Of a DNA stretch of 64,000 nt, positions 1 through 55,520 are shown piece after piece. Source of the DNA: Candidatus Micrarchaeia archaeon (GTDB lineage Archaea > Micrarchaeota > Micrarchaeia > Burarchaeales > JACRGF01); contig JAWCPB010000002.1 in assembly GCA_038870455.1 (NCBI GenBank), positions 2,247 through 66,246 of the forward strand, written 5' to 3'. The notes under the pieces were generated by a model. The model searched no databases and was not told the DNA's origin. It saw nothing but the letters and a program-made list of their open reading frames with translations. Positions within the stretch are counted from its first letter, which is position 1; each line of letters opens with the position of its first letter. The translations under genes were made by a program, and so were the position numbers.

Positions 1-618
1 GCCATCGCGGCAGGCATTCCCGCCCCGCGCGCCTATGTCATGGACGAGGATGCCCCGAATGCATTCGCCGCGGGCAGGGACCCGCAGCACGCCGTCGTGT
101 GCGTGACCACCGGCCTGCTCAAGAGGATGAACCGCCTCGAGCTCGAGGGCGTCCTCGCGCACGAGATCAGCCACATCCGCAATTACGACATCCGCTTCGC
201 CACGCTCGCGGTCGTGCTCGTTGGCGTTGTCTCCATGCTCAGCGACGTCTTCCTGCGGAGCGTTTTCAGGGGGGGCCTCGGCCGGGACAGGAAGGGCGGC
301 GGGGGGTTCGTCATCCTCCTCGTGCTCGCCGTCTTGTTCGCCGTTCTCTCGCCCTTCTTCGCCCAGCTCCTGCGCTTGGCGCTCTCTCGCCAGAGGGAGT
401 ACCTCGCCGATGCCAGCGGCGCGCAGCTCACGCGCTATCCCGAGGGGCTGGCGAGCGCGCTCGAGAAGATAGCCAAGGAGGGGAAGCGCGTTGAGGCCGC
501 AACCAATGCCACCGCACCGCTCTACATCTCCAACCCTCTCCAGGGAGGTTTTCTGGCAAGCCTTTTCTCCACACACCCGCCGATTGAGGAGAGGGTGAGG
601 CGCCTGAGGATGATGTAG
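1..618 (+). CDS. htpX: HtpX-like M48 zinc metalloprotease, C-terminal part (5' end lies outside the window)
   Basis: Frame 1 is open from base 1. Translation AIAAGIPAPRAYVMDEDAPNAFAAGRDPQHAVV..LAHEISHI carries the HExxH zinc motif (HEISH) and the conserved HtpX NAFA-G segment. TAG stop at 616-618. Confidence 0.8.
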   Translation, partial: AIAAGIPAPRAYVMDEDAPNAFAAGRDPQHAVVCVTTGLLKRMNRLELEGVLAHEISHIRNYDIRFATLAVVLVGVVSMLSDVFLRSVFRGGLGRDRKGGGGFVILLVLAVLFAVLSPFFAQLLRLALSRQREYLADASGAQLTRYPEGLASALEKIAKEGKRVEAATNATAPLYISNPLQGGFLASLFSTHPPIEERVRRLRMM

Positions 619-1179
619 CTACTTGTGGACCACCTTCAACAGGTCCGCTTTCGTGACGATGCCGATTACCTTCTCTTTCTTCACGATGAGCACAGCCGGA
701 GCATGGCGCAGCAGGGCGGACAGCACGGGCAGGGGCGTGGCCTCATCGACTCTCGGGGGCGGGTCGGCCATGACGTCGCCCACGCGCGACTTCGAGAGCA
801 GAGTCAGGTCGGCTCCCTCGCCCACCCTCTCGGTTATGACCGCCTCGCTGATCATCCCCACCACATTGTCTCCTTCGAGAACCGGCAGCTGGGAGATGTT
901 CAGCCTCTTCATCGTCCTCACCGCGTCGGCCACGCGGTCGCCCCTGCTCACCCCAACGACCTTGCCAGTCATGATGTCCTTGGCCAGCAGGGACTCCCTC
1001 TCCTCCATCCTCTCGAGCGCCTCGAAAATCTCCTTGGCCTTGCCGTACGATGGATCAACCTTCCCCGCCTCGATCTTTGCGATGAGGGACTGCGACACGT
1101 CGGCGAGCCTGGCGAGCTCGGTCTGCTTGAGCCCCAGCCTGACCCTCCAGCGCTTTATCTCTGCGAGCTCCGGGAGCAT
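619..1179 (-). CDS. HTH (XRE-type) plus tandem CBS-domain transcriptional regulator
   Basis: 186 aa. N-terminal helix-turn-helix (LKQTELARLADVSQSLIAKIEAG) is followed by two CBS-like repeats (DIMTGKVVGV..., VGDVMADPPP...VIGIVTKADLL). Divergent from the sulfur cluster across an AT-rich promoter island. Confidence 0.75.
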   Translation of the reverse strand: MLPELAEIKRWRVRLGLKQTELARLADVSQSLIAKIEAGKVDPSYGKAKEIFEALERMEERESLLAKDIMTGKVVGVSRGDRVADAVRTMKRLNISQLPVLEGDNVVGMISEAVITERVGEGADLTLLSKSRVGDVMADPPPRVDEATPLPVLSALLRHAPAVLIVKKEKVIGIVTKADLLKVVHK

Positions 1180-1213
1180 GACGGGATTTCTCCGGCAACC
1201 TTTTTCTCATTTC

Positions 1214-1260
1214 GGAATATTCCTTTTTGAATAATTTTTATATAAAATTATTTAAATTAG
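1214..1260. promoter_or_regulatory. Divergent promoter island: palindromic GGAATATTCC box (1214-1223) plus two TATA-like boxes (tttttatataaaa 1235-1247; ttatttaaatt 1249-1258)
   Basis: AT-rich island in about 65% GC DNA between a minus-strand regulator (start 1179) and the plus-strand TauE gene (GTG 1279). tttatttaaa-like elements recur about 25-40 bp upstream of many starts in this window. Confidence 0.5.
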
Positions 1261-1278
1261 AATATACGAAACTCGTGC

Positions 1279-2058
1279 GTGGTTGCGGACATCGCGCTTG
1301 TGCTGACCGGCCTCCTGGTCGGCTTCCTTGTGGGCCTGACGAGCATAGGCACGGGCCTCGTGGGCACACCCACCCTCATCCTGCTTGGCGTGCCGCCGGC
1401 CGCGGCCGTCTCGGCCGAAATCATCCAGGGGACCGTGATGAAGGCGGTTGCCGTGATAAAGCATTGGCGCAGGGGGCGCGTTTTTCATTCCCTCGCGCTC
1501 AAGATGGTCGCGCTCGGCATTCCGGGCGCTGCCGCAGGCTCTTGGCTCTCCTCGCGGCTTGACGCCGCTGCCCTGTCGCAGGCGGTCGCGCTCATTCTCA
1601 TCGGCGTGTCGCTTCTCGTTGTTCTTGAGGCGTGGGCGAGCCGCAGGCAGGGCCCCTGCCGTGAGACCTTCCGCCCTCTCCTGAAAAACCGCGCTCTCAA
1701 CGATGCGCTCCTAGTCCTGCTGGGTGGCTGCGTGGGCTTTCTCTCGGGCCTCACGAGCATCGGCTCGGGCACCTTCATCGTCCTCCTCTTCCTGCTCTTC
1801 CTCCGCATCCCCACAGGCTGCTCTGTCGGCACCGCGACTTCGGCCGGCCTCCTCATCCTTTCAGCCGCCGCACTGTCGCATGCCTCGCTTGGTTCTGTTG
1901 ACCTTTCGCTCACCGCAAAGCTTCTCGCCGGCTCGCTTCCGGGCGTGTGGCTGGGCACCCATCTGCTGTCAAGAGCCCCGGCCCACCACATCCGCATAGC
2001 GATTGCCGCGCTCACGCTCGCGGGCGGGCTGAGGATTTTGACGGGTGTGCACCTTTAA
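1279..2058 (+). CDS. TauE/SafE (DUF81) family sulfite/sulfonate exporter-type membrane protein
   Basis: 259 aa with a GTG start. Two halves of multi-TM repeats carry the family-typical GFLVGLTSIGTG and GFLSGLTSIGSG glycine motifs. Confidence 0.7.
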   Translation: MVADIALVLTGLLVGFLVGLTSIGTGLVGTPTLILLGVPPAAAVSAEIIQGTVMKAVAVIKHWRRGRVFHSLALKMVALGIPGAAAGSWLSSRLDAAALSQAVALILIGVSLLVVLEAWASRRQGPCRETFRPLLKNRALNDALLVLLGGCVGFLSGLTSIGSGTFIVLLFLLFLRIPTGCSVGTATSAGLLILSAAALSHASLGSVDLSLTAKLLAGSLPGVWLGTHLLSRAPAHHIRIAIAALTLAGGLRILTGVHL

Positions 2059-2092
2059 ATACCCGTGAGGGCATAACATTCCACTTATTCTG

Positions 2093-2962
2093 GTGGGAGC
2101 TTTGAAGCCCTACTATCTGGCAAAACCCCCGGAGACCCCCCTCGCCCAGAGGCGCGCGCGAATGCTCTCGAGGGAGGAAGGCGAGCGGATTCTGGCGATG
2201 TCCCCGCGGGCCATCTCCGAGCTCTTGCGCAAGCCCGCTCCAGAGTACATTGATGCGGCCGTGCTCAAGCCATCGCGCAAGGGAGTTCGGCTGCTCGGCG
2301 AGATGGCGAGAAGCGAGGCGGAGGCCAGAGAGTTCCTCACCGCGCTCAGGGACATCGCGCTCACGAGCGAGGAGTTCGACGGAGTGGCCAGAAAGGAGCT
2401 CGCCAAAACCGCAGTCTCGCAAAACGCTGACCCGGAAGCCGCCAAGGCGGCCTTCATCCTCGCCGAGAGGGCCGGCCTTGCGATCGGCGAGCGCATCCGG
2501 CGAATTATCGTCGGCAGGCTCATCCTCACAGCCCCCACCACCATTCTCTCCGCAGCGCTTTCTGTCTTGGCTTTCGGCACAGCAGCGCTCGCTCTCGTGT
2601 TTGGGCGCATTTCAGACCTCATCGTCGCTCCGATTGCTGGCTTTTCAGGCTGGATCGCTCTCAAAGCCGCGCGCGCGGCCGGAAGCCGCTTTGCCGACAG
2701 CATCCGTATGGCATTAACTTTGGGAAAAAGGCTCGCCGGCTATGCTGCGGAGCTCAGAGATGCCGAGATCGCCGAGGTGCTGGAAAGCTCGGCTTGGGAG
2801 CGAGCCTTGCGCGAGGGCGTTCCGGCTACCCCCGCAGAGCTCAAAAAAGTGCTAGGGGACACCGAGCCCAAGACAGGAACGAATGCGCCGGACGCGGCCA
2901 GCGCGTTGGAGCTCACCGAGGAGGACATCGGCCGAGTCCTTAACAGAAAAAAGCGCGACTGA
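2093..2962 (+). CDS. Hypothetical protein with central hydrophobic segments
   Basis: 289-aa ORF with cluster-like codon usage and no recognisable motif. TM-like stretch [28 protein letters not shown]. Confidence 0.4.
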   Translation: MGALKPYYLAKPPETPLAQRRARMLSREEGERILAMSPRAISELLRKPAPEYIDAAVLKPSRKGVRLLGEMARSEAEAREFLTALRDIALTSEEFDGVARKELAKTAVSQNADPEAAKAAFILAERAGLAIGERIRRIIVGRLILTAPTTILSAALSVLAFGTAALALVFGRISDLIVAPIAGFSGWIALKAARAAGSRFADSIRMALTLGKRLAGYAAELRDAEIAEVLESSAWERALREGVPATPAELKKVLGDTEPKTGTNAPDAASALELTEEDIGRVLNRKKRD

Positions 2963-2982
2963 AATCACCAATTATTCTTAGC

Positions 2983-3011
2983 GGAATAAATTATTCAACA
3001 ATTTATTTAAA
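2983..3011 (+). promoter_or_regulatory. GGAATA box (2983-2988) plus TATA-like tttatttaaa (3002-3011) upstream of the ThrC-like gene
   Basis: Same motif arrangement as at 1214, 6822 and 9488, about 35 bp upstream of the start at 3045. Confidence 0.45.
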
Positions 3012-3044
3012 CTCCGCCCGCCTAAAGCCTTCTCTCCTTCCGAG

Positions 3045-4301
3045 GTGTTTCTCATAGCCCGCTATAACCTCAAGTGCAGGGAGTGCGGAAAGGGGTATCC
3101 CGCGGCCGAGCGGACGGTTTGCGATGACTGCTTTGGCCCTGTCAAGGTGAATTTCGAGCTGGCCGAGGTGGGCAGGACCTTCACAAAGGAGAACATCGCC
3201 CGCCGCCCGCTCTCACTGTGGCGCTACTTCGAGCTGCTTCCTGTCGATGACAGGAGCCGCATCGTTGACCTTGGCGCTGGCTACACGCCGCTCATCCACG
3301 CGAAGAAGTTAGGGGATAAGCTTGGCCTCAGGAAGCTCTACATCAAGAACGACTCGGTGAACCCGACCTTTTCCTTCAAGGACAGGCCCGTGACGGTCGG
3401 CATCACCAAGGCCATTGAGTTCGGCAAGAAGGTCATCTCATGCGCCTCAACGGGAAACCTGGCGGCCGCCAGCGCGGCCCACGCCGCAAAAGCAGGCCTG
3501 CCGTGTTTTGTGTTCATCCCCGCCGACATCGAGCTCAACAAAATAGCCCAGATTTTCGCCTACGGCGCGCGCGTCATTGCAGTCAACGGCATCTACGATG
3601 TGGCGAACCGCCTCTCCAATGAGGCGGCTGACCGCTTCGGCTGGGCCGTGCTGAACGTGAACATCCGGCCTTATTACGCGGAGGGCGAGAAGACCATCGC
3701 GTTCGAAACGTGCGAGCAGCTGGGCTGGGAGCTGCCTGACGCAGTGGTAATCCCCATCGGCAGCGGCGGCCTGCTCTGCGAGGTGGAGAAGGCCTTCAGG
3801 GAGCTGCGGGAGCTGCGCCTTGTGGCGGACAAACCAGTTCGCTTCTACGGCGCGCAGGGCGAGGGCGCCGACGCAGTCATTCGGGCGGTCAAGAAGGGCG
3901 GGCCGGTCGTTCCCATCAAGAACCCCAGGACAATCGCAAAGAGCATAATGTTCGGCGCGCCCGGCGACGGCGAGCACGCGCTACGCATCATCAGGGAGAC
4001 GCGGGGAGGGGGCGAGAACCCGGATGACAAGGAGATTCTTGAGGGCATTCGCCTGCTCGCCCAGACCGAGGGCATTCTCACCGAGCCAGCGGGCGGCACA
4101 ACCATCGGCGCGCTGAAGAGGCTGGCCGAGGGAGGCGCGTTTGATGCGGGCGATGTCGTGGTCGCGTTCATCACGGGCAACGGCCTCAAGACGCAGGAGG
4201 CGATTCCGAAAGGAAAGGCATACAGGATCGAGCCGAGGATAGAAGAGGTCGAGAGGATACTGAGAAGGCTTGGGAGGGAGAGCCATGGCAAAGGGGATTA
4301 G
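3045..4301 (+). CDS. Threonine-synthase-like fold-type II PLP enzyme with N-terminal Cys4 zinc ribbon
   Basis: 418 aa. N-terminal CRECG...CDDCFG zinc ribbon. NPTFSFKDRPV PLP-lysine motif typical of ThrC. GSGG and GNL segments of the ThrC/CysK fold. Its 3' end overlaps the MoaD-like gene by 32 nt. Confidence 0.85.
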   Translation: MFLIARYNLKCRECGKGYPAAERTVCDDCFGPVKVNFELAEVGRTFTKENIARRPLSLWRYFELLPVDDRSRIVDLGAGYTPLIHAKKLGDKLGLRKLYIKNDSVNPTFSFKDRPVTVGITKAIEFGKKVISCASTGNLAAASAAHAAKAGLPCFVFIPADIELNKIAQIFAYGARVIAVNGIYDVANRLSNEAADRFGWAVLNVNIRPYYAEGEKTIAFETCEQLGWELPDAVVIPIGSGGLLCEVEKAFRELRELRLVADKPVRFYGAQGEGADAVIRAVKKGGPVVPIKNPRTIAKSIMFGAPGDGEHALRIIRETRGGGENPDDKEILEGIRLLAQTEGILTEPAGGTTIGALKRLAEGGAFDAGDVVVAFITGNGLKTQEAIPKGKAYRIEPRIEEVERILRRLGRESHGKGD

Positions 4302-4569
4302 GGTGAGATTCTCCAGCGCGCTCAAGCCGCAGACGGGCGAGGCCGAGACAACCCTGCCCAAGGCCGGCAGTGTCGGGGAGGTTCTCGCCCTGCTTGTCAA
4401 GAAGTACGGCGAGGGCTTCCAGAAGCGCGTTTTCGACGAAAGCGGGAGCGTGCGCAGGTTCATCAACATCTATGTCAACGGCGAAGACATCCGCTTCAAG
4501 AATGGTCTGGCCAGCAGGCTCAAGGCTGGCGACGAGGTGCTCATTCTCCCCGCAGTGAGCGGCGGGTGA
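4270..4569 (+). CDS. MoaD/ThiS-like ubiquitin-fold sulfur-carrier protein number 1 (C-terminal GG)
   Basis: 99 aa (about 94 from the second Met). Ends ...VLILPAVSGG followed by stop. The beta-grasp pattern (IRVRF..., FINIYVNGEDIRF) resembles MoaD/SAMP. Confidence 0.8.
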   Translation: MGGRAMAKGIRVRFSSALKPQTGEAETTLPKAGSVGEVLALLVKKYGEGFQKRVFDESGSVRRFINIYVNGEDIRFKNGLASRLKAGDEVLILPAVSGG

Positions 4570-4573
4570 GGTA

Positions 4574-5323
4574 TTGGAGCTAAGCGATTACGACCTCAAG
4601 AGGTACGACCGGCAGATGCGCATTCACGGCTGGGGTGAGGAGGGGCAGAAGAGAATAAAGGCCGCAAAGGTGGGCGTCATTGGCACGGGGGGGCTTGGCT
4701 CCCCCCTCACAACCTACCTCGCGGTGGCGGGCGTGGGCAAAATAATCGCGGCCGACCGCGATGTGGTTGAGCTGTCGAACCTGAACAGGCAGATACTACA
4801 CTGGGACAAGGACATCGGCAGGAAAAAGGCAGAGAGCGCTGCCGAAAAGCTCAAGCAGGTCAATCCCTCCATTGAGGTGGTCGTCGTCGGCGAGGATGTG
4901 ACCGCGGAGAACATCGATAGGATATTTGAGGGCGTCGATGTCGTTGTTGACGGGCTGGACAATTACCCAAGCCGTTTCGTGCTCAACGAGTTCGCCGTGC
5001 GCAAGCGCATTCCGTTCGTTCACGGCAGCGTGTGGGGCATGGAGGGACGCGTGACAACCGTGATCCCAGGCAAGTCGCCTTGCCTGCGGTGCATCGTGCC
5101 CGAGGCCCCGCCGCGCGAGGTTTTTCCAGTGCTCGGCACAATTCCGGCTCTCGTGGCTACCATTCAGGCTACAGAGGTGCTCAAGTGCATAACGAAAGTT
5201 GGCCTGCTACTGACGGGCAGGCTGCTCGTCTACAATGGCGAGCACATGACTTTCGACGAGATTCCCCTCGAGAGGGACCCGGATTGTCCGGTGTGCTCGG
5301 CCCTCTGGACGAGCGAGGGCTGA
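4574..5323 (+). CDS. E1-like ThiF/MoeB/HesA family adenylyltransferase number 1
   Basis: 249 aa. YDRQMRIHGWGEEGQKRIKAAKVGVIGTGGLGS nucleotide-binding start. CLRC...CPVC zinc motif. No rhodanese domain. TGA stop at 5321-5323 lies in the same frame as the downstream CysK. Confidence 0.85.
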   Translation: MELSDYDLKRYDRQMRIHGWGEEGQKRIKAAKVGVIGTGGLGSPLTTYLAVAGVGKIIAADRDVVELSNLNRQILHWDKDIGRKKAESAAEKLKQVNPSIEVVVVGEDVTAENIDRIFEGVDVVVDGLDNYPSRFVLNEFAVRKRIPFVHGSVWGMEGRVTTVIPGKSPCLRCIVPEAPPREVFPVLGTIPALVATIQATEVLKCITKVGLLLTGRLLVYNGEHMTFDEIPLERDPDCPVCSALWTSEG

Positions 5324-6262
5324 GGTGGTTCCACGGCAAGATACGAGAGCGTCCTTGAGGCGATTGGCGGCACGCCGCTCATTCGCCTCAACAGGATAAC
5401 CAAGGGCCTGAAGCCTGTCATCTATGGCAAGCTCGAAGCCCGTAATCCAGCCTACTCAGTCAAGGACCGCATCGCGCTCGCCATGATCGAGGCAGCCGAG
5501 AGGCAGGGCGTGCTCAAACGCGGCTCAATCATCGTTGAGCCCACGAGTGGCAACACGGGCATCGGCCTCGCCATGGTGTGCGCGGTCAAGGGCTATCGCC
5601 TAAAGCTCACCATGCCCGAGAGCATGAGCCTGGAAAGGCGTGCCCTGTTGCGCGCTTTCGGCGCCGAGCTCATCCTCACCCCTGCCAGCGAAGGCATGCG
5701 CGGCGCTGTGGCGGCTGCAGAGGAGCTTGCCAGACAAGACAGGCACGTGTTCATCCCGCAGCAGTTCAAGAACAAGGCCAACGTGGAGATCCACAGGAAG
5801 ACAACCGCAGAAGAGATATGGCGGGATACAGAAGGGAAAATCACTCACTTTGTGGCCGGCGTGGGCACGGGCGGCACCATCACCGGGGTCGGGCAGGTGC
5901 TGAAGAAACGAAAGCCTTCAGTGAAAATCTATGCTGTCGAGCCTGCAGCTTCGCCCGTGCTGTCAGGCGGCAAGCCGGGTCCTCATAAGATTCAGGGCAT
6001 CGGCGCCGGCTTTGTGCCGGACATTCTCGACAGGAGCATCACCGACAGGATCATCCAGGTCTCGAACGAGGACGCGTTCGCCACAGCAAGGAGGCTCATC
6101 AGGGAAGAGGGCCTCCTTGTAGGAATCTCGGCTGGCGCGAACACCTGGGCAGCCCTCCAGGCCGCGGTGGAGGCGGACAAGGGCGACGTTATCGTCGTAG
6201 TGCTGCCCGATACGGGCGAGAGGTATATAAGCACAGACCTCTTTGCCGAATACAGGGAATGA
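5324..6262 (+). CDS. cysK: Cysteine synthase (O-acetylserine sulfhydrylase, CysK type) number 1; start unresolved
   Basis: Near-colinear with E. coli CysK from [19 protein letters not shown] through [11 protein letters not shown] (PLP lysine), [10 protein letters not shown] and [10 protein letters not shown]. The first in-frame ATG (5483) would delete the catalytic lysine. No ATG/GTG/TTG lies between the upstream in-frame TGA (5321) and the conserved N-terminus. Confidence 0.8.
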
Positions 6263-6263
6263 C

Positions 6264-6809
6264 ATGGCGTTGGATTTCCTGAAAACGCTTCTCGAGGACT
6301 TCACCACCCCATTCAAGAGAGACCCAGCAGCCACCAATATCCTAGAAGTGGTTTTCCTCTACCCCGGCGTGCATGCGATCCTGCTCCACCGCATCGCCCA
6401 CAGGCTGTGGCTATGGCGCATACCATTCATCCCGCGCGCGCTCAGCCACCTCAACCGGTTTCTCACAGGCATCGAGATTCACCCCGGCGCGACCATAGGC
6501 AGGCGTTTTTTTATTGACCACGGTGCGGGCGTGGTCATAGGCGAGACGGCCGAAATAGGCGACGACTGCACCCTTTATCAGGGTGTGACGCTCGGCGGCA
6601 CGGGCCTGCAGAGGGGCAAGCGCCATCCAACAGTCGAAAAGGAGTGTGTCATAGGCGCCGGCGCCATTCTGCTGGGGCCCATCCGCATAGGTCATCACAG
6701 TCGCATTGGCGCGGGCAGCGTGGTCAACAAGTCCTTCCCGCCCTATTCAACAGTCGTTGGTGTGCCGGGACGTGCGGTGACCAAGAGCACCTTCATCTAC
6801 CAGATATAG
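6264..6809 (+). CDS. cysE: Serine O-acetyltransferase (short form)
   Basis: Left-handed beta-helix hexapeptide repeats ([41 protein letters not shown]...RHP) like CysE. ATG at 6264 sits 1 nt after the cysK stop. An alternative ATG lies at 6243. Confidence 0.8.
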
Positions 6810-6821
6810 CCAATTCTGATT

Positions 6822-6854
6822 GGAATAGTTTAGTCAAAAATTTATTTAAATAAG
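6822..6854 (+). promoter_or_regulatory. GGAATAG box (6822-6828) plus TATA-like tttatttaaataag (6841-6854) upstream of the ATP-grasp gene
   Basis: AT-rich island in the 64-bp cysE/ATP-grasp gap. A CCAAT..ATTGG inverted repeat lies immediately upstream. Confidence 0.45.
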
Positions 6855-6873
6855 AATACAAGAAATACTGGGC

Positions 6874-8097
6874 ATGGCTGTTGGCATACTCCACGCGCAG
6901 GGACTCCTTGAGTTTGATGATCCCGCAAACGTCATATCCGGCCGAGCCGACAGGTCCGGAGTAATCCTCGCGGGGTTGGAGGCCAAACTGCGTGCTAAAG
7001 GTGTGGAAGTTATCCGCATTTCCAGTGAGAGCCTGAAAGGCGAATTCACCTCACCCCCGAACCTCTCCGTGCTCTACGTATTCCCGCTGTGCGCCAAGTA
7101 TTTTGAAGACCTGCCCAAAAAAGTTCGGACGAAGCTTGAGGAATGGGATGAGCGGGGCCTGCTCTTCAACCCGCTCGGAGCGCTTATCGCCCAAACAGAC
7201 AAGCGCGCCACGACCGAGGCATTCAAAAAGCACGGGGTTGCCATTCCGGAGACGCTCATCTCGTCAAACAGCAACGAGCTGGCTGCGTTCGTGAAAAATC
7301 ACCGCGTAGCAATCCTCAAGCCCACACACGGTGCTGGCGGCGGCAACATCCTCTTCCTGGTCTGGAAGGACGGGACGGTGTACGCCCGCGTGCCGCAGGA
7401 TGGCCGCATCGTCGAGCTGCCGTGTGAGTTCAAGCACTACACCACTCGCCATTCAAGACTTTACTCCGCGCACACCCACGATGGGCGTGTGCACATCCAT
7501 GGCGAGGTTGTTGTGCAGGAGGTCATCCAGCCGGAAGGGCGCTGGAACGAGAGCGTGCTCAAGGTGTATGTCGTGGATGGCAGGGCCGCTTTCGGGGTGG
7601 AACTCACGCGCAGCGCGAGCACCCCGGAAGAATCCATAATCACGTATGCGAACGCGGAACACAGGCTGGTGGATGTCAAATCGATCCCAAAAGAGGCCGT
7701 GGAGCTGGCCGTCAAGGCCGCCGCTGCGCTGGGCCTGCGCGCCTGCCTCGTTGATCTGATTAAAAAGAATGGGGGCTGGGTGGCGCTCGAGACCAACGGA
7801 GACAACATCTACACCATCCACGATAGGGGGTACCGTTTTGCGCAGGGTTTCAAACCAGAGTTTGATTTTGATGAGCATCTGGCCTCTGCGTTGGCCGCCC
7901 GCGACACTCTTTCGGACCGCAAGCGCGCTCCGGACAACCGCAGGGACAAGCACGTCTGCGCTCCTCTTCCCGTCAGCCCGGATCCGTTCGCGCGCGCCAA
8001 GGGCGTGACCCTCCCGCGCCCAGGCCAGGCAGGAGAGGGCCGGCAGCCTCTCTCGCTCGCCCAGGCTGGAAAGCCTAATAAAATCACGGTGAAATAA
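6874..8097 (+). CDS. ATP-grasp family ligase (RimK/GshB-like fold) with low-complexity C-terminal tail
   Basis: 407 aa. VAILKPTHGAGGGNILFLV glycine-rich ATP-binding loop. Overall N-domain, central-domain and C-domain layout of ATP-grasp enzymes. Pro/Arg-rich tail of about 80 aa. Confidence 0.6.
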   Translation: MAVGILHAQGLLEFDDPANVISGRADRSGVILAGLEAKLRAKGVEVIRISSESLKGEFTSPPNLSVLYVFPLCAKYFEDLPKKVRTKLEEWDERGLLFNPLGALIAQTDKRATTEAFKKHGVAIPETLISSNSNELAAFVKNHRVAILKPTHGAGGGNILFLVWKDGTVYARVPQDGRIVELPCEFKHYTTRHSRLYSAHTHDGRVHIHGEVVVQEVIQPEGRWNESVLKVYVVDGRAAFGVELTRSASTPEESIITYANAEHRLVDVKSIPKEAVELAVKAAAALGLRACLVDLIKKNGGWVALETNGDNIYTIHDRGYRFAQGFKPEFDFDEHLASALAARDTLSDRKRAPDNRRDKHVCAPLPVSPDPFARAKGVTLPRPGQAGEGRQPLSLAQAGKPNKITVK

Positions 8098-8105
8098 GCG
8101 GTTGT

Positions 8106-9011
8106 ATGGCAGGAAAAAAAAGGCCGGGAATCCTCTCCGCGATTGGAAACACGCCGCTGGTTGAGCTCGTCAAACTCAATCCCTCGCGCCCGCGCGTGCG
8201 CATCCTCCTCAAGCTCGAGGGCCACAACCCCACGGGAAGCCTCAAGGATCGCATAGCCCTCTACATGATTGAGAAGGCGGAGGAAAGGGGCGAGCTGACA
8301 AAGGGGAAAACTGTTCTAGAGGCCACGAGTGGCAACACGGGCATCGGCCTCGCCATGGTGTGCGCCGCCAAGGGCTATCCCTTCGTGGCGTGCATGAGCG
8401 AGAGGGAGAGCGCGGAGAGGAGGAAGATAATGAAGGCTTTCGGCGCAGAGATCATCCTCACGCCCGCAGAGCAGGGAACAGACGGAGCGATAAGGAGGGC
8501 GGACGAGCTGGCCGCCGCCCACCCGGAAAAATACTTCGTGCCGCGCCAGCACAGCAATCCGGACAACGCGCTCGCGCACTATGAGACGACGGGCCCAGAA
8601 ATCTGGGCACAGGCGAAGGGGGATGTCGATGTCTTCATCGCGGGCATCGGCACAACGGGCACGCTCATGGGTGTCGGCAGGTTCCTCAAGGAAAAGAACC
8701 CGCACGTGAAAGTCATCGGCGTGGAGCCGGCAGAGAAGCACAGGCTGTACGGCCTGCGCAACCTCACCGCCGCCATGGTGCCGCCCATCTTCAACCCCTC
8801 CCTGCTTGATGACAAGGTGCGCGTGGCCGATGAGCACGCCTACAGACTGACGAGAGAGCTCGCGCGCGCCGAAGGCGTATTCGCCGGAATCAGCACGGGC
8901 GCGGTCGTGTGGGCCGCCCTGGAGGCCGCGAAGTCGCTCGGCAGGGGCACGATAGTCGCGCTCTCGCCCGACAGGGGCGACAAGTACCTGAGCATCCCGG
9001 ATTTATTCTGA
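8106..9011 (+). CDS. cysK: Cysteine synthase (CysK/CysM type) number 2
   Basis: 301 aa. IGNTPLVEL...NPTGSLKDRIA (PLP lysine), [20 protein letters not shown]. Own ATG 8 nt after the ATP-grasp stop. Confidence 0.85.
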   Translation: MAGKKRPGILSAIGNTPLVELVKLNPSRPRVRILLKLEGHNPTGSLKDRIALYMIEKAEERGELTKGKTVLEATSGNTGIGLAMVCAAKGYPFVACMSERESAERRKIMKAFGAEIILTPAEQGTDGAIRRADELAAAHPEKYFVPRQHSNPDNALAHYETTGPEIWAQAKGDVDVFIAGIGTTGTLMGVGRFLKEKNPHVKVIGVEPAEKHRLYGLRNLTAAMVPPIFNPSLLDDKVRVADEHAYRLTRELARAEGVFAGISTGAVVWAALEAAKSLGRGTIVALSPDRGDKYLSIPDLF

Positions 9012-9039
9012 AACTATTCTTTTTTGAAATCCCTCTCGG

Positions 9040-9477
9040 GTGATGGCATTCGGCGCACGAAACAATCTTGTTGGGCCTGTGGGCGGAGCATTCTACGGGC
9101 CTGGAGGGAATCCGCACTGCCGCCCGCGCAACTGGTTTGGACTGGGCGACGGAGCCAAGCGCAGGCTTTCCAGCTGCGTGGGGCGCGTTGGAGAAAACGG
9201 CTTCTGTCTGAGGGCTACTGAGGTGTTTCGCGATGCCGCATTATCCGAGAGGGAGGAGATTTTGCACGGCGCGCTCGAGGCGCTCAGGAGGGAAAAGGAG
9301 GAAAACGGGCGTGTTCCCAGGGAGCTCTTGAAAAAAATCGTCAGGCTCATCGAAATAGACGCCTGGGCCGCGCGCCGCGTGCTGCAGGACTTCATCGGCG
9401 CGCTGAGGGCCGAGCGCAGCGAGGCCCTACCGCTCTTTGTCAAGCTCAAGGACTACTCAAACGCGAAGGCAACGTGA
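9040..9477 (+). CDS. Hypothetical protein (C-terminal half helical); start uncertain
   Basis: 145-aa ORF in the operon gap between cysK number 2 and MoaD number 2. No motif recognised. No JAMM signature. Confidence 0.3.
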   Translation: MMAFGARNNLVGPVGGAFYGPGGNPHCRPRNWFGLGDGAKRRLSSCVGRVGENGFCLRATEVFRDAALSEREEILHGALEALRREKEENGRVPRELLKKIVRLIEIDAWAARRVLQDFIGALRAERSEALPLFVKLKDYSNAKAT

Positions 9478-9487
9478 TATTCTTTTC

Positions 9488-9517
9488 GGAATAAAACTTA
9501 TAGGAAATTATTTATAT
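9488..9517 (+). promoter_or_regulatory. GGAATA box (9488-9493, in tttcggaataaaa) plus TATA-like attatttatat (9507-9517) upstream of MoaD number 2
   Basis: Same tttcggaata sequence as at 1211-1219. Lies in the AT-rich island 9478-9520. Confidence 0.45.
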
Positions 9518-9549
9518 GCGCACGACGGAATATCCTCGGGTGGTTTCCT

Positions 9550-9825
9550 TTGGTGAAGATAAGGTTCTCTTCAGCGATCGCCGCTGCGGTGAGGGGCGAG
9601 GCGGAGGCCACGCTGGACTTCGAGGGGGACGTCGCGGCGCTGCTCGCGCTTCTCTCCCAGAAGTACGGCGAGGGCTTTCAGAAGCGCATTCTCTCGGGCG
9701 GAAGGATAAACGGCTTCGTCAGCGTGTATCTCAACGGCGAGGACATCCGCTTTCTCAAGGACGTTCAGACCCGGGTGCGGAACGGCGACACGATATACAT
9801 CACTCCGGCCGTGTCGGGGGGCTGA
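9550..9825 (+). CDS. MoaD/ThiS-like sulfur-carrier protein number 2 (C-terminal GG)
   Basis: 91 aa with a TTG/GTG start. Ends ...IYITPAVSGG plus TGA. Paralogous to carrier number 1 (shared YGEGFQKR, NGEDIRF). Confidence 0.8.
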   Translation: MVKIRFSSAIAAAVRGEAEATLDFEGDVAALLALLSQKYGEGFQKRILSGGRINGFVSVYLNGEDIRFLKDVQTRVRNGDTIYITPAVSGG

Positions 9826-9830
9826 GCCCC

Positions 9831-10625
9831 GTGCCGCTGAGCCTGACCGAGCTCAAGCGCTACTCGCGCCAGCTCATCCTGCCGAACTTCGGCGCGAGAG
9901 AGCAGCGGAGGCTGAAGAACGCGAGGGTGGTCGTCACGGGAGCCGGCGGCATCGGCTGTCCCGTGCTGCTCAACCTCGCCGCCAGCGGCGTGGGAAGCAT
10001 AACAATCATAGACAGCGACAGCATTGACCTCACGAACTTGAACAGGCAGTTCCTCTTCACGCCAGCGGATGTGGGAAGGCCAAAGGCGGTGGTGGCCGCA
10101 GAGCGCATCCGCGCGTTCAATCCGGACATCGAGGTCAGGCCCGTTGTGAAGGTCATCGACTACTCCAACGCGTTCGACCTCCTCAAGGGCTTTGACGCAA
10201 TCATCGACGGCACGGACAACTTCGCCGCGCGCTATGCGATAAACGACGCCGCCGTGCTCAACAGGACCCCGCTGTTTCACGCCGCCGTTCTGCAGTACGA
10301 GGGACGCGTCTTCACCGTCATTCCCGGAAAGAGCGCCTGCCTGCGCTGCGCCTTCCCGGTCATCCCGCCAAAGGGAAGCATCCCCACCTGCAGGGAGGCG
10401 GGAGTTCTCGGAAGCGTCATAAGCGTGCTGGCAGGCATCCAGGCCACTGAGGCGATCAAGCACCTGGCCGGCCAGGGCGCGCGCCTGACCGACAGGATGC
10501 TGGTTTTCGACGGCAGGACCATGTCTTTCGACGAATTCCGCTTCAGGAGGAGGAGGGAGTGCAGCGCGTGCGGCCAAAAGGGCTTCACTTCCTCGCCGGT
10601 GTATCAAGAGGTTTGTGACATATGA
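9831..10625 (+). CDS. E1-like ThiF/MoeB adenylyltransferase number 2
   Basis: GTG at 9831, 5 nt after the MoaD number 2 stop. LKRYSRQLIL...ARVVVTGAGGIGC. CLRC...CSAC zinc motif. The ORF-track 5' extension (9516) is probably spurious. Confidence 0.8.
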   Translation: MPLSLTELKRYSRQLILPNFGAREQRRLKNARVVVTGAGGIGCPVLLNLAASGVGSITIIDSDSIDLTNLNRQFLFTPADVGRPKAVVAAERIRAFNPDIEVRPVVKVIDYSNAFDLLKGFDAIIDGTDNFAARYAINDAAVLNRTPLFHAAVLQYEGRVFTVIPGKSACLRCAFPVIPPKGSIPTCREAGVLGSVISVLAGIQATEAIKHLAGQGARLTDRMLVFDGRTMSFDEFRFRRRRECSACGQKGFTSSPVYQEVCDI

Positions 10626-10861
10626 AACAGATCCACGAGCTTGACCTGAGGGGCGAGAGGTGCCCTGACACCTTCACCTACACGAAGATTCGGGCGGAGG
10701 AGCTGCGGGAAGAGGGCAGGGCCGGCGACATCCTCAAGGTGATTGTCGACAACGAGCTCAGCGCCAGGGACGTTCCGGCGAGCATGCAGCTCGAGGGGCA
10801 CAGGGTGATAGAGGTCAGGAAGGCGAACGGGCTGTGGGAGCTTTTTTTCGAGATTAAATAG
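10622..10861 (+). CDS. TusA-like sulfurtransferase (CPxx motif)
   Basis: 79 aa. LDLRGERCPDTFTYTKIRAEEL matches the TusA/SirA LDxxGxxCP...K pattern. ATGA overlap with the E1 number 2 stop. Confidence 0.65.
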   Translation: MKQIHELDLRGERCPDTFTYTKIRAEELREEGRAGDILKVIVDNELSARDVPASMQLEGHRVIEVRKANGLWELFFEIK

Positions 10862-11911
10862 GTGGTTGAAATCAGGGAATGGGATGATGCTCTTGGCCTG
10901 ACCCCGCGGCTTGACTGCGGCCTGTGCGGGCTGGACTGCGGCGCGCTGGCCCGCAGGGCGCTCGCAGGAGCGAGCGAGTTCTCGGAGTGCATTCCCGCCA
11001 GGCAGAGCCCGCAGGCCGCGCCCGCGTTCGCAGAGCTGAGGCGAAAGCACTCGCCCTCGCGCCTGCCGGAGCCGAGGAAGGACGTGCTTGTCGTGCGCCC
11101 ATGCATCGATGTCGCGAACAGGGTGAGCGGCGAGGCGAACATCCGCCACTGGTCGCCATCCCCCTACCCGCCCTTTGACTCGGTGTATCTGGAGCATGCG
11201 TTGCGCACCAGCGGAGCCTTTGGCAACGTCAAGTACTCGCCCTCGCTTGGCATCGCAAACCTTCTGCTCAGCGAAGGGAGAGGAGTTGTCTTCTCCCGCT
11301 CCGGAAAAGCCATCGCGCGCGCCGCTTTCGACCTCAATGACTTGGAGAAAACATTCTCACTCGTTTCCCTGGTCTCCTGGCCCGCCGCGGTCTGCGGCGA
11401 ATGCGGTTCTCTCGCAATCGACTGCGCCATAGGCGCGTGCAACGCCTGCGGCGCCTGCCACGCCTCGCGCGTTCCCCCCTCCACAAACCTGCAGTCATCT
11501 GTACCGAGCCGCCGCGCCACCCCAGCCGTTTCCCTCCTCTCGCCCGCGGCGAATCACGCGATTGAAGGGATCGGAGCAGAGCCTGCACTCGAGAGTGCCG
11601 AGAAAAGAGCGTTCGCGCTGCTGCTCGAGGGCGATGCCGGCGCGCTGTTCCTCCTTGGGCTCGCCAAGCAGCTTCGCTTTCTCGCAGACGGGCTGGCCAG
11701 GGCAGGAGGGGGCCGGCAGCTGAAGAAAATCGCCAGGGAGGCCTGGGAGGCTCTCGAGACGGGGGATAAGAAAAAGGCGGAGCACGCTGCCGGAGATGCC
11801 GCGCGGGCTTTAGCCGAGCTCAAGCGCGGCTTTTCAGAAGGCGGGCAGGTTTGGGCCGCCAAGGCCGCAGGGGCATCGCTTAAAATAGCACGCGCTGCAA
11901 CAAAGCTCTGA
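10862..11911 (+). CDS. Cys-rich protein with two putative Fe-S-cluster (PF04060-like) domains
   Basis: 349 aa with a GTG start directly after the TusA stop. LDCGLCGLDCGALARRALAG and CGECGSLAIDCAIGACNACGAC resemble the CxxCGxxxCxxxA Fe-S domain of corrinoid/Fe-S proteins. The rest is uncharacterised. Confidence 0.5.
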   Translation: MVEIREWDDALGLTPRLDCGLCGLDCGALARRALAGASEFSECIPARQSPQAAPAFAELRRKHSPSRLPEPRKDVLVVRPCIDVANRVSGEANIRHWSPSPYPPFDSVYLEHALRTSGAFGNVKYSPSLGIANLLLSEGRGVVFSRSGKAIARAAFDLNDLEKTFSLVSLVSWPAAVCGECGSLAIDCAIGACNACGACHASRVPPSTNLQSSVPSRRATPAVSLLSPAANHAIEGIGAEPALESAEKRAFALLLEGDAGALFLLGLAKQLRFLADGLARAGGGRQLKKIAREAWEALETGDKKKAEHAAGDAARALAELKRGFSEGGQVWAAKAAGASLKIARAATKL

Positions 11912-11920
11912 GGTGCGCGA

Positions 11921-13396
11921 ATGGCGCTGCGCGTGCACAACACCCTATCCAAGAGGCTCGAGGAATTTGTTCCGGGCGAGCCGGGCTTGGTGCGCATGTA
12001 CGTGTGCGGCCTGACCCCATACGACAGATTCCACCTCGGCCACGCGCGTACTTACGTTGCCTTTGACATCATAAGGCGGTACCTCGAGTTCGTCGGCTAT
12101 CGCGTGCTGCACGTTCAAAACATCACTGACGTGGATGACAAGATACTCAACCGTGCAAGGGAGCGCAGCGAGGAGCCTCTGGCGATGGCGGAGCACTTCA
12201 GCAAGCTCGCCATGCAGGAGTCCGACCTCCTCGGCATACGGAGGGCGCACCACTATCCCAAGGTCAGCGAGCACATTCCAGAAATAATCTCCCTCGTCGA
12301 ACGCATTGCCAGCAAGGGCTTTGCCTACGAGACAGAGGACGGCGTGTATTTCGACGTCGAAAAATTCCCTGGCTATGGCAAGCTCAGCGGGCAAAAGCTT
12401 GATGAGATAAAAGCTGGCGCGCGCATCGCCGTGGATGAGAGGAAGAGGCACCCGGCTGACTTCGCGCTTTGGAAGAAGTGGAAGCCCGGCGAGGCGCTCG
12501 CCTGGGACTCGCCCTGGGGGCGGGGCAGGCCGGGCTGGCACATCGAATGCTCCGCCATGAGCGCGAAGTACCTCGGCCAGTCGTTCGACATCCACGGCGG
12601 GGGCAGCGACCTCATCTTTCCCCATCACGAGAACGAAATCGCCCAGAGCGAGGCGGCGAGCGGAAAACAGTTTGCGCGCTACTGGCTTCACACAGGCTGG
12701 CTGACCGTGAAGAAGCAGAAGATGGCAAAGTCGCTCAAGAACTTCATCACGGTGGAGGGGGCGCTGGCCAAGTGGGAGCCCGAGGTGCTGCGGCTGTTTT
12801 TCGCCTCCACACACTACCGCTCCCCGCTCGACTTCAACGAGGGCTCGCTTGAGGCCGCGCGCGCGGGCTTGGCCACGCTGCGCAGCGCGCTGTACAACGC
12901 CGCAGAGGCAAGGCCCTCGAGGGGCCGCCCGGCAAAGTGGCTCGAGGAGGCTGTTGCCAAGCACAGGGAGGCCTTTCTGGCGGCCATGGACAACGACTTC
13001 GACACCAGCACCGCGCTCGCCCACCTGTTCGAGATCGCCAAGCACATAAACACGTACATCAACGAGGGGAAAATCGACAGCCACGTGCTCGAGCACGCGG
13101 TCGCCGAGTACAAGAGCCTCGCGGGCATACTCGGCCTGCTCGAGAGCCTTCCCAGGAAAATAGCGAGTGAAGAGGATACCGCCCGGCTCAGGGTGCTTGC
13201 GGCCTCGCTGGGCGTGGACAGTGAAAAAGCAGAGCGCCTCGGCTTCACCGAGCTCATGTCGCTCGTGATCGCCGAGAGGGAGAAGGCGAGGAAGGCAAAG
13301 GACTTCGCGAGGGGCGACGAGATCAGAAAGGCGCTGCGCGGCCTCGGCATAGCCATCGAGGACACTCCAAGGGGAACGGTCTGGCGGTTTGCATGA
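11921..13396 (+). CDS. cysS: Cysteinyl-tRNA synthetase
   Basis: 491 aa. HLGHARTY (HIGH), KMAKSLKN (KMSKS), class I fold and C-terminal anticodon-binding helices. Confidence 0.9.
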   Translation: MALRVHNTLSKRLEEFVPGEPGLVRMYVCGLTPYDRFHLGHARTYVAFDIIRRYLEFVGYRVLHVQNITDVDDKILNRARERSEEPLAMAEHFSKLAMQESDLLGIRRAHHYPKVSEHIPEIISLVERIASKGFAYETEDGVYFDVEKFPGYGKLSGQKLDEIKAGARIAVDERKRHPADFALWKKWKPGEALAWDSPWGRGRPGWHIECSAMSAKYLGQSFDIHGGGSDLIFPHHENEIAQSEAASGKQFARYWLHTGWLTVKKQKMAKSLKNFITVEGALAKWEPEVLRLFFASTHYRSPLDFNEGSLEAARAGLATLRSALYNAAEARPSRGRPAKWLEEAVAKHREAFLAAMDNDFDTSTALAHLFEIAKHINTYINEGKIDSHVLEHAVAEYKSLAGILGLLESLPRKIASEEDTARLRVLAASLGVDSEKAERLGFTELMSLVIAEREKARKAKDFARGDEIRKALRGLGIAIEDTPRGTVWRFA

Positions 13397-54062: not shown

Positions 54063-55157
54063 TCATCGCTCGCGCAGGCCGGCGATGAACTCCTCAAGCC
54101 TCTCCCTCGCCTCTGTGTCAGTGAATTGCTGCGGGGGATGTTTCATGAAGTAAGAAGAGGCCGAAATGAGAGCGCCGCCTATTCCCCTCTCAAGCGCCAG
54201 CTTTGCGCACCTTATCGCATCAACAACGATTCCCGCGCTGTTCGGCGAATCCTCCACGTCGAGCCTGCACTCGAGGCTGATGGGCACGTCTCCAAACTTT
54301 CTTCCCTCAATGCGAATAAAAGCCAATTTCTTGTCCTTGAGCCAAGGCACGTAATCGCTGGGGCCGATGTGAATGTCCTCGGAGTCAAGAGGCACTGGAA
54401 ACTGGCTCTGCACCGCGCTTGTCTTGCTTATCTTCTTGCTCTTCAGCCTCTGCCTCTCTAGCATGTTGAGGAAGTCGGTGTTGCCCCCCACATTCAGCTG
54501 GTAGGTGCGTTCAACTTTCACGCCCCTCTCAAGGAAGAGGCGAGCGAGCGTGCGATGCAGGATTGTCGCACCCACCTGGCTCTTAATGTCGTCGCCAACA
54601 ACCGGCAGCCCTTTTTCCTCAAACCTCTTCGCCCACGCCTCATCGCTTGCTATAAACACGGGCATGCAGTTGATGAACGCGCACCCTGCATCCAGTGCGG
54701 CCCGCGCATAGTACCGCACGGCCTCCTCACTGCCCACAGGCAGGTAATTGATGAGCATGTCGGCTTCAGCCTCGCGCAGCGCCTCGGCCACATCAACGGG
54801 CTTCTGGGCCGGGTCGACCAAGAAGCTGCCTCTCGTTGTTTCCGCAACGCCATCCAGCACGGGCCCCTTCTGCACAATCACGCCAGTCTTTGGGATGTTT
54901 TTGCAGAAGATCTGCGTGCAGTTCGGGGGAGAAAAAATCGCCTCACTCACGTCCCTGCCGACCTTCCGCTTGTCCACATCGAAAGCCGCCACAACCCGTA
55001 TGTCGCCTATGCGGTACCCCCCGAGCACATTGTGCATGAGGCCCGGCACGCTCTCGTCGTTGCTGCTCACGTGCCTGTAATAGGTCAGCCCCTGCACGAG
55101 CGAGCTCGCGCAGTTCCCCAGACCCGCAATGGCTATCCTGATATTCCTCCTTGTCAT
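54063..55157 (-). CDS. myo-Inositol-1-phosphate synthase (archaeal type)
   Basis: 364 aa. [21 protein letters not shown]-binding start. Conserved NGSPQNTFVPG-like core region. Confidence 0.8.
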
Positions 55158-55208
55158 ATTTAATCCCTGTTAAACATTATTTAATAAGAATTAAATAAAA
55201 AGCTTTGC

Positions 55209-55520
55209 ATGGCAGACAAAACGCTCCCTGAGAAAAGGCTGGCGCGCGCCCTGACCACGGAGAACCTTTGGCTTTACGTGCTCTCCCTCCTGCGAAGGCG
55301 GGAGAGGTACGCCTATACCCTGAGGGACGACATCGAAAGCGAGTTCGGCTGGAAGCCGGGCCTCATTCTGAGCTATGTTGTTCTCTACAAGCTGCAGGCA
55401 GAGGGGCTCATCGCGGGCAGGCAGAGGGGCAGGAGGAAGTATTACATGATTACGGAAAAGGGACGGGCTGCACTCTCGCGCGCAAAGCGCGCGCTCTCAT
55501 CACTTTCAAAAGGCTTATAA
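55209..55520 (+). CDS. PadR-family transcriptional regulator
   Basis: 103 aa. LYVLSLLRRRERYAYTLRDDI...ILSYVVLYKLQAEGLIAG winged-helix pattern. AT-rich promoter island at 55150-55205. Confidence 0.7.
   Translation: MADKTLPEKRLARALTTENLWLYVLSLLRRRERYAYTLRDDIESEFGWKPGLILSYVVLYKLQAEGLIAGRQRGRRKYYMITEKGRAALSRAKRALSSLSKGL

Follow-up and report, generated by a model that had tools for sequence, protein, structure and literature searches.

A 14-bp promoter dyad as the probable operator of an archaeal XRE-CBS regulator of methionine and S-adenosylmethionine genes

In Escherichia coli, MetJ together with S-adenosylmethionine (SAM) exerts end-product feedback on the methionine/SAM genes and on its own gene, binding cooperatively to repeated sites over core promoters (reviewed in PMC1282579, PMC4239095), and bacterial SAM riboswitches, SahR and MetR are functional analogues that act on methionine/SAM genes through SAM, S-adenosylhomocysteine (SAH) or homocysteine (PMC4239095). 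The corresponding regulation in archaea is essentially unknown, SAM riboswitches being bacterial; an operator, a ligand and a regulon have been defined for very few archaeal transcription factors, and almost none of these proteins has a regulon conserved across phyla. The DNA analyzed here, a 64-kb stretch of a Candidatus Micrarchaeia contig (JAWCPB010000002.1; “the window”), contains a gene for a protein that combines an XRE-type helix-turn-helix (HTH) with a pair of CBS domains, and four promoters beside this gene share a 14-bp dyad, ATTC-N6-GAAT. From sequence comparisons we conclude that the dyad is probably the operator of the adjacent protein, which would control a methionine/SAM regulon.

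The window has a G+C content of 61.6% and contains short AT-rich promoter islands. An initial annotation had pointed to a GGAATA box at four promoters of a sulfur gene cluster, and the hexamer is indeed present on the plus strand at 1214, 2983, 6822 and 9488 (25 occurrences on both strands of the window versus 9.3 expected), but it is only the right half of the conserved unit, ATTC-N6-GAAT, whose extended form is (T)ATTC-N6-GAAT(A). The longer consensus then proposed, TYCGGAATA, is not conserved: among 75 related sites, GAAT has a G before it 39 times and an A 32 times. The window contains four exact copies of the dyad (1219-1232, 2974-2987, 6813-6826 and 9479-9492), compared with 0.59 expected from whole-window shuffles and 0.031 under a null model confined to the AT-rich islands (26 islands, 1192 nt in total), in which four copies were reached in 0 of 20,000 shuffles. 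None of the remaining 22 islands contains the dyad, which bears out the earlier statement that the motif is missing from the other promoter islands. The spacing is constant at all four sites: exactly 14 nt separate GAATA from TTATTTAWA, the TATA boxes beginning at 1248, 3003, 6842 and 9508. The regulator gene and the promoter elements are as follows, O1 denoting the putative operator and O2 a weaker copy of it.

619-1179, minus strand: regulator gene, 186 aa, XRE-type HTH plus CBS pair (Pfam)
1205-1218: decayed 14-mer TCTCATTTCGGAAT, ending 25 nt before the regulator ATG, the autoregulatory position typical of the family (aligned with the own-promoter operators of loci L124, L125 and L127)
1219-1232: putative operator O1 of the TauE promoter, ATTCCTTTTTGAAT, abutting the decayed 14-mer
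1248-1256, plus strand: TATA box of the TauE gene, TTATTTAAA; the GTG start at 1279 is 31 nt after its first T
1250-1263: pseudo-operator O2, ATTTAAATTAGAAT, one mismatch, overlapping the TATA box and starting 31 bp after O1; third half-site GAATA at 1260-1264
2974-2987: putative operator O1 of the ThrC-like operon, ATTCTTAGCGGAAT; conserved CA at 2996-2997; orthologous sites at 9038 in L001 and 8269 in L003
3003-3011, plus strand: TATA box of the operon at 3045-6809, TTATTTAAA
6813-6826: putative operator O1 of the ATP-grasp operon, ATTCTGATTGGAAT; conserved CA at 6835-6836; orthologous sites at 5211 in L001 and 6965 in L003
6842-6858, plus strand: TATA box TTATTTAAA (6842-6850) within pseudo-operator O2 ATTTAAATAAGAAT (6844-6857); third half-site GAATA at 6854-6858; ATG at 6874, 32 nt past the first T
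9016-9029: decayed operator ATTCTTTTTTGAAA without a TATA box, preceding a 145-aa open reading frame (ORF); intact and with a TATA box in L001 (3029) and L003 (4718)
9479-9492: putative operator O1 of the second ThiS/ThiF operon, ATTCTTTTCGGAAT; orthologous sites at 2529 in L001 and 4202 in L003
9508-9532, plus strand: TATA box TTATTTATA (9508-9516) and a displaced downstream half-site, GGAATA (9527-9532); GGAAT or GGAAA at the same offset in L001 and L003

At the first site, the “perfect palindrome” described initially, GGAATATTCC (1214-1223), is out of register. It is the junction of the decayed 14-mer and the abutting intact operator, and, measured from the TATA box, the half-site in the conserved position is GAATA at 1229-1233, not GGAATA at 1214-1219. 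The position of the GTG suggests that the TauE mRNA is leaderless. When one mismatch was allowed, the scan of the window returned three further informative sites (1250-1263, 6844-6857 and 9016-9029), and the two TATA-overlapping pseudo-operators, ATTTAAATTAGAAT and ATTTAAATAAGAAT, each begin exactly 31 nt after the start of O1. A further promoter island (55134-55221) has a minus-strand GGAATA (55142-55147) and the sequence TTATTTAATAAGAAT, which resembles a TATA box plus half-site; it contains no ATTC-N6-GAAT and was not counted as a site.

The regulator has an N-terminal HTH_3 (XRE) domain (PF01381, residues 8-56, E = 1.4e-11) and a C-terminal tandem CBS (Bateman) module (PF00571 twice, E = 7e-18); there is no NCBIfam model for it. 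Its AlphaFold2 model (predicted local distance difference test score 89.7) consists of an HTH with three short helices (7-37), a long helix (45-62) and the CBS pair, and its top Foldseek matches are generic CBS pairs (probability 1.0). Sequence and fold searches of the PDB returned only such generic pairs and no solved HTH-plus-CBS relative. The closest named relatives are from Candidatus Micrarchaeia, and homologues in public databases carry no more specific annotation than “CBS domain-containing protein” or “predicted transcriptional regulator”. The homologues retrieved, including those from a search with a Methanocellales regulator, all come from metagenome-assembled genomes or metagenomes, none from a cultured host. 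Several Micrarchaeota loci (window 1180-1204; also L001, L003 and L125) share the sequence AAAAAGGTTG (AAAAAGTTTG in L003) at 16-18 nt before the regulator ATG; it could be a weak TATA box or B recognition element (BRE), or a leader element, of the regulator gene.

The link between the dyad and the divergent HTH-CBS regulator, as initially proposed, holds up in distant relatives. Eighty metagenomic homologues, 44-56% identical to the regulator, were picked by protein similarity alone, and 75 of them had at least 90 nt of upstream sequence. An exact dyad lies no more than 90 nt upstream of 67 of these 75 genes, ending 25-29 nt before the start codon in 58, and dyad density in the 90-nt upstream windows is 11.75 per kb versus 0.021 per kb in the other 530 kb of the same loci, a 565-fold difference. 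All of 24 diverse homologues share the same recognition helix, GVSQSLIAK-E, and across the family as sampled neither the helix nor the operator half-sites vary. In 49 of the 67, at least seven of the 8 nt beginning inside the right half-site are A or T (e.g. GAATATAAA, GAATTTAAA), which is the position at which the TATA box of a leaderless regulator gene would be expected. The flank opposite the regulator is a mirror image of the layout at target promoters, indicating an operator common to the regulator and the divergently transcribed gene. That gene has a predicted role in making homocysteine or SAM in 56 of 64 loci, with representatives of each of the following classes verified by Pfam.

HcyBio (PF01837, mostly with a CBS pair): divergent neighbor in 30 of 64 loci
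Archaeal AdoMet synthase (PF01941): divergent neighbor in 13 of 64 loci
MetK: divergent neighbor in 9 of 64 loci
Cys/Met-metabolism pyridoxal phosphate (PLP) enzyme, MetY-like: divergent neighbor in 4 of 64 loci

Closer to the window, the dyad is kept at orthologous promoters in five related Micrarchaeota loci (L001, L003, L124, L125 and L127). L001 and L003 are syntenic with the window and have regulators 81% and 80% identical to the one described here; at their orthologous promoters ATTC/GAATA and the spacing are constant and N6 and the flanks vary. In L124, L125 and L127 (56-61% identical), the dyad precedes Hexapep (CysE-like), ThrC-like and CysK-like genes and also lies 27-28 nt before the regulator’s own ATG.

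The promoter layout also recurs far outside the Micrarchaeota. A 16-base pattern, TATTC-N6-GAATA-N15-TATTTA, matched at least 120 stretches of viral contigs, and a stricter, 20-base three-part pattern, ATTC-N6-GAATA-N15-TATTTA-N5-GAATA, was used instead. The stricter pattern matched two stretches in all IMG/VR viral contigs and 80 stretches among 185,579 species genomes, a collection in which archaea are a small minority; 76 of the 80 are labeled archaeal and represent about a dozen lineages (Bathyarchaeota, Methanocellales, Methanosarcinales, Nano-, Woese- and Pacearchaeota, Micrarchaeota, Altiarchaeota, Iainarchaeum, Thaumarchaeota and others). One of the four with a bacterial label, L147 (DATLAV010000092.1, labeled Patescibacteria), has an HcyBio operator, TATA box and leader closely like those of Bathyarchaeota contigs (L158, L270, L289) and is probably a mis-binned archaeal contig. 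The ORFs downstream of the pattern sites include 19 HcyBio as well as MetY-like, ThrC-like, MetRS, MetK, SAM hydroxide adenosyltransferase (SAM_HAT) and ThiS-like proteins, and one further type is an alpha/beta-hydrolase, MetX-like in appearance. Of the 67 ORFs called, 29 have their start codon 29-35 nt past the first T of the TATA box, a distance that suggests leaderless mRNAs.

Columns left unfixed by the 20-base pattern were analyzed in 75 unique sites, in which the ATTC and GAAT half-sites are invariant and N6 is variable and T/A-biased. Among the unfixed columns, T occurs at -1 in 61 sites and at +7 in 64, and CA occurs at +22/+23 in 72 and 71 sites, respectively. This CA, counted from the operator start and lying 7 nt upstream of the TATA box, is more strongly conserved than the TATA box itself, and may be a BRE (contacted by TFB) or an additional regulator contact; it is present at window sites 2 and 3 (2996-2997 and 6835-6836) and absent at sites 1 and 4. 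The promoters selected through the regulator protein (n = 64) are unbiased for everything but the dyad; 55 of them have the CA, and 35 have a third GAAT, located at +40 to +42.

These data point to the following mechanism. A dimer of the regulator would recognize the 14-bp dyad ATTC-N6-GAAT (TATTC-N6-GAATA). In target promoters, 14-15 nt with the near-invariant CA, which is probably the BRE, separate O1 from the TATA box; O1 is centered at about -53, too far upstream to occlude TBP. At many targets, the TATA box is at the same time the left half of the weaker copy, O2 (TATTTA-N5-GAATA), 31 bp or three helical turns from O1. At the regulator’s own gene, the operator runs into a TATA-like stretch, and bound regulator should shut off its own promoter. 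In the window, four transcription units are predicted to belong to the regulon: the TauE gene, a thiocarboxylate homocysteine operon of MetM/MetO-like type that also encodes CysK and CysE, the ATP-grasp/CysM operon, and the second of the ThiS/ThiF operons. We lean slightly toward SAM, or a related adenosyl metabolite, as the ligand sensed by the CBS pair. SAM is the likeliest signal because the regulon ends in SAM and because binding of SAM and methylthioadenosine has been reported for CBS pairs, among them the pair found in the main target enzyme family (MJ0100) (PMC4045070, PMC13381585). Because the core elements are near-consensus, we favor cooperative repression, in which liganded protein would bind O1, cooperatively fill the TATA-overlapping O2 and thereby repress intrinsically strong promoters when SAM is plentiful, although for this step we see the chances as evenly balanced.

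Several points weigh against this interpretation. The pairing of regulator and site is drawn from co-localization and conservation, and the 20-base pattern itself fixes most positions of the layout in advance, leaving its unconstrained columns as the independent evidence. The fold matches of the regulator are to generic CBS pairs that bind AMP, ADP or ATP, and a specific kinship between its CBS pair and the SAM-binding pair of HcyBio was rejected (E = 0.10). The region upstream of the L001 regulator has no dyad, and the intact operator of both the window and L003 stops 39 nt short of the regulator ATG instead of 27 nt; with the degenerate 14-mer of the window, this makes autoregulation appear less than universal and seemingly weakened in this clade. 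Finally, the third half-site is missing or off its usual offset in 29 of the 64 protein-selected promoters (~45%) and at window sites 2 and 4, which weakens a model of repression from two operators.

This last point bears directly on the main alternative, in which the same protein and site act by activation: the ligand-free dimer at O1 would recruit TBP or TFB while repressing its own promoter, and SAM would release it. Such logic is known from archaeal LysM or Ptr2 and from LysR-type regulators at divergent promoters. Activation fits the rigid spacing of O1 upstream of the BRE and TATA box, which is seen at practically every target, with or without a half-site further downstream (one is lacking, at the usual offset, in the promoters just listed), and a shared divergent operator would permit autorepression and target activation together. 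The target promoters, however, have a near-consensus TATA box (TTATTTAAA) and an A-rich, BRE-like CAAnAAA. Such features are typical of intrinsically strong promoters under repression, weak core elements being usual where an archaeal promoter depends on an activator. In many targets, moreover, the TATA box lies inside a recognizable second operator at 31-bp phasing. We therefore hold activation to be possible rather than probable, and retain repression as our working model.

Both mechanisms assume that the XRE-CBS protein binds the dyad. A different, unlinked factor could do so instead, with the XRE-CBS gene being only a frequent member of the regulon, and it speaks for this explanation that a full-length regulator lies within the same 8 kb in just 13 of the 80 stretches selected by pattern. 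We nevertheless consider it very unlikely, because the dyad is fixed upstream of 67 of 75 regulator genes in very divergent lineages, even where there is no divergent target (L124), because the invariant recognition helix matches the invariant half-sites, and because a 14-bp dyad with 4-N6-4 geometry, that of phage 434-type XRE operators, is what a dimeric XRE HTH recognizes. A further explanation would need no dedicated regulator: the dyad would be a generic UP-like or core-promoter element that AT-rich promoters of archaea have in common, or would stem from duplication of one promoter within the cluster. In its favor, the TATA box is very similar at all four sites, and both the A-rich tract and the CA at +22/+23 probably belong to an ordinary BRE. 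It can nevertheless be set aside as extremely improbable: the dyad is in none of the other 22 AT-rich islands of the window, only the half-sites and spacing are kept across species while N6 and the flanks diverge, and the association of the dyad with Met/SAM genes and with a single regulator family extends across phyla.

The genes downstream of the four promoters in the window are listed below.

1279-2058, plus strand: TauE/SafE-family membrane protein (permease) (Pfam PF01925)
3045-6809, plus strand: target operon of ThrC-like PLP enzyme, ThiS-like, ThiF-like, CysK and CysE-like genes (Pfam, NCBIfam)
3045-4301, plus strand: ThrC-like PLP enzyme (MetM-like)
4285-4569, plus strand: ThiS-like
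4574-5323, plus strand: ThiF-like
5333-6262, plus strand: CysK
6243-6809, plus strand: hexapeptide acyltransferase (CysE-like)
6874-9477, plus strand: target operon of ATP-grasp, CysK/CysM-type and 145-aa protein genes (Pfam, NCBIfam)
6874-8097, plus strand: ATP-grasp ligase
8106-9011, plus strand: CysK/CysM-type PLP enzyme
9040-9477, plus strand: 145-aa protein of unknown function
9550-10625, plus strand: start of the second ThiS/ThiF operon (NCBIfam)
9550-9825, plus strand: ThiS/MoaD(SAMP)-like
9840-10625, plus strand: ThiF/MoeB-like

Synteny with L001 and L003, together with precomputed Pfam assignments for those loci, indicates that the second ThiS/ThiF operon extends further, through genes for TusA and a 349-aa protein of unknown function to CysRS. 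The ThrC-like/ThiS/ThiF trio fits a thiocarboxylate route to homocysteine, via MetM, MetO and MoeZ, that was described recently (bioRxiv 10.1101/2024.10.14.618325). Searches of the window by tblastn with representatives found no HcyBio, AdoMet synthase, MetK, MetY-like, MetX-like, MetRS or SAM_HAT, so the window cannot show the operator at those genes in this genome. The initial annotation spoke of a sulfur-status regulon; the archaeal targets as a whole (HcyBio, SAM synthetases, MetY-like, ThrC-like and MetRS) suggest that methionine/SAM biosynthesis describes the regulon better than general sulfur status, with the cysteine and thiocarboxylate sulfur-carrier genes as a probable Micrarchaeota-specific extension. 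No Rfam family matched positions 1-12000 of the window at gathering score as a cis-regulatory RNA, and the dyad, lying upstream of the TATA box, is not transcribed and hence not an RNA element.

Some genes of the cluster have features of their own. CysK (to 6262) has no ATG, GTG or TTG start and lies in frame directly after the ThiF TGA (5321-5323); its start region reads ACG GCA AGA TAC (ACG at 5333, preceded by GAGGTGG) versus ATG CCG AGA TAC in L001, and the ACG could be a start codon, a sequencing error or an inactivated start. At the promoter of the 145-aa gene, the TATA box is lost and the operator decayed in the window, whereas both L001 (3029-3042) and L003 (4718-4731) retain a TATA box and a third half-site there along with a perfect operator. 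Transcription of the 145-aa gene in the present genome probably comes by read-through from the CysM-type gene ahead of it. A 289-aa protein (2093-2962) without a Pfam or NCBIfam match is encoded behind a promoter with a TATA-like CCTTTAAATACCC (2052-2064) and no operator. Its gene is conserved beside the regulator in L001 and L003, and in L001, where TauE is absent, it is divergent from the regulator.

In other lineages, the same layout precedes small proteins without a Pfam match in Woesearchaeota and Nanoarchaeota (L138, L153, L156, L187 and L203; L137/L139 and L154/L189), one family being of ~162 aa and others of ~110 and ~200 aa; these are candidate regulon members in DPANN lineages that often lack methionine synthesis. 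Operators or regulators have, each in a single lineage, a KaiC-like ATPase (L204), a putative cyclase (PF04199; L228/L272) or a possible class I aminoacyl-tRNA synthetase fragment (L210) as neighbors, and the membership of these three in the regulon is uncertain.

Taken more broadly, one ancient XRE-HTH-plus-CBS factor would be an archaeal master regulator of methionine/SAM synthesis, with an operator and a near-invariant promoter layout (operator, BRE-like CA, and a TATA box inside a second operator three helical turns away) conserved from DPANN to Bathyarchaeia, Methanocellales, Methanosarcinales and Thaumarchaeota, sensing SAM via its CBS pair and acting by cooperative occupancy that brackets the BRE and TATA box; this general proposal may equally well hold or fail. 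If true, it would supply the missing archaeal counterpart of MetJ and the SAM riboswitches. The pairing of one protein family with one 14-bp site is concrete and testable, and the strict promoter geometry could be used to annotate Met/SAM regulons in uncultured archaea, including the unknown small DPANN proteins. The geometry also offers a route to studying how a bound regulator relates to TBP and TFB, and the regulator is a candidate SAM-responsive switch for archaeal synthetic biology. A full-text literature search, with most subscription journals outside its reach, found no description of the factor, the site or the regulon.

Comparison with described systems places the regulator in familiar company. 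The logic would be that of MetJ, with end-product feedback and cooperative repeated sites over core promoters, but MetJ is a ribbon-helix-helix protein of gamma-proteobacteria that binds 8-bp met-boxes, whereas the protein described here has an XRE HTH and CBS domains, pairs with a 14-bp dyad and operates with the archaeal TBP/TFB machinery; a MetJ-type repressor is ruled out, as the Pfam domains of the regulator are HTH_3 and CBS only and the site is a 14-bp dyad. SAM riboswitches, SahR and MetR are RNA or belong to unrelated factor families, and the dyad lies upstream of the TATA box. The phage 434 repressor and Cro, which are XRE (HTH_3) dimers, share the HTH family (PF01381) and the 14-bp geometry, with outer 4-bp half-sites and an A/T-biased central 6 bp, but their half-site is ACAA rather than ATTC and they have neither a CBS sensor nor a metabolic regulon. 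CcpN of Bacillus subtilis, likened to our regulator by domain types, joins an N-terminal HTH to a CBS pair that senses adenosyl nucleotides and represses by overlapping promoters, which are properties that the archaeal protein may share; CcpN is bacterial, with a gluconeogenic/carbon regulon and a different operator. The NrpR operator of methanogens, GGAA-N6-TTCC, is likewise an archaeal N6 palindrome of GAA/TTC-type half-sites near biosynthetic core promoters, but its half-sites face the opposite way, and NrpR belongs to another protein family, senses 2-oxoglutarate and governs nitrogen assimilation; the only GGAA..TTCC at this locus is GGAATATTCC (1214-1223), with a 2-bp spacer, and is not an NrpR operator. 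HhpR of Pyrococcus yayanosii is also an archaeal CBS-based transcription regulator, but as far as its published account goes it is an activator with four CBS domains and no HTH domain, responds to pressure and has an unrelated regulon (PMC11705074). Thus, a ligand-sensing HTH regulator with a dyad operator is a familiar kind of system, and what sets this one apart is its phylogenetic breadth and its fixed promoter geometry.

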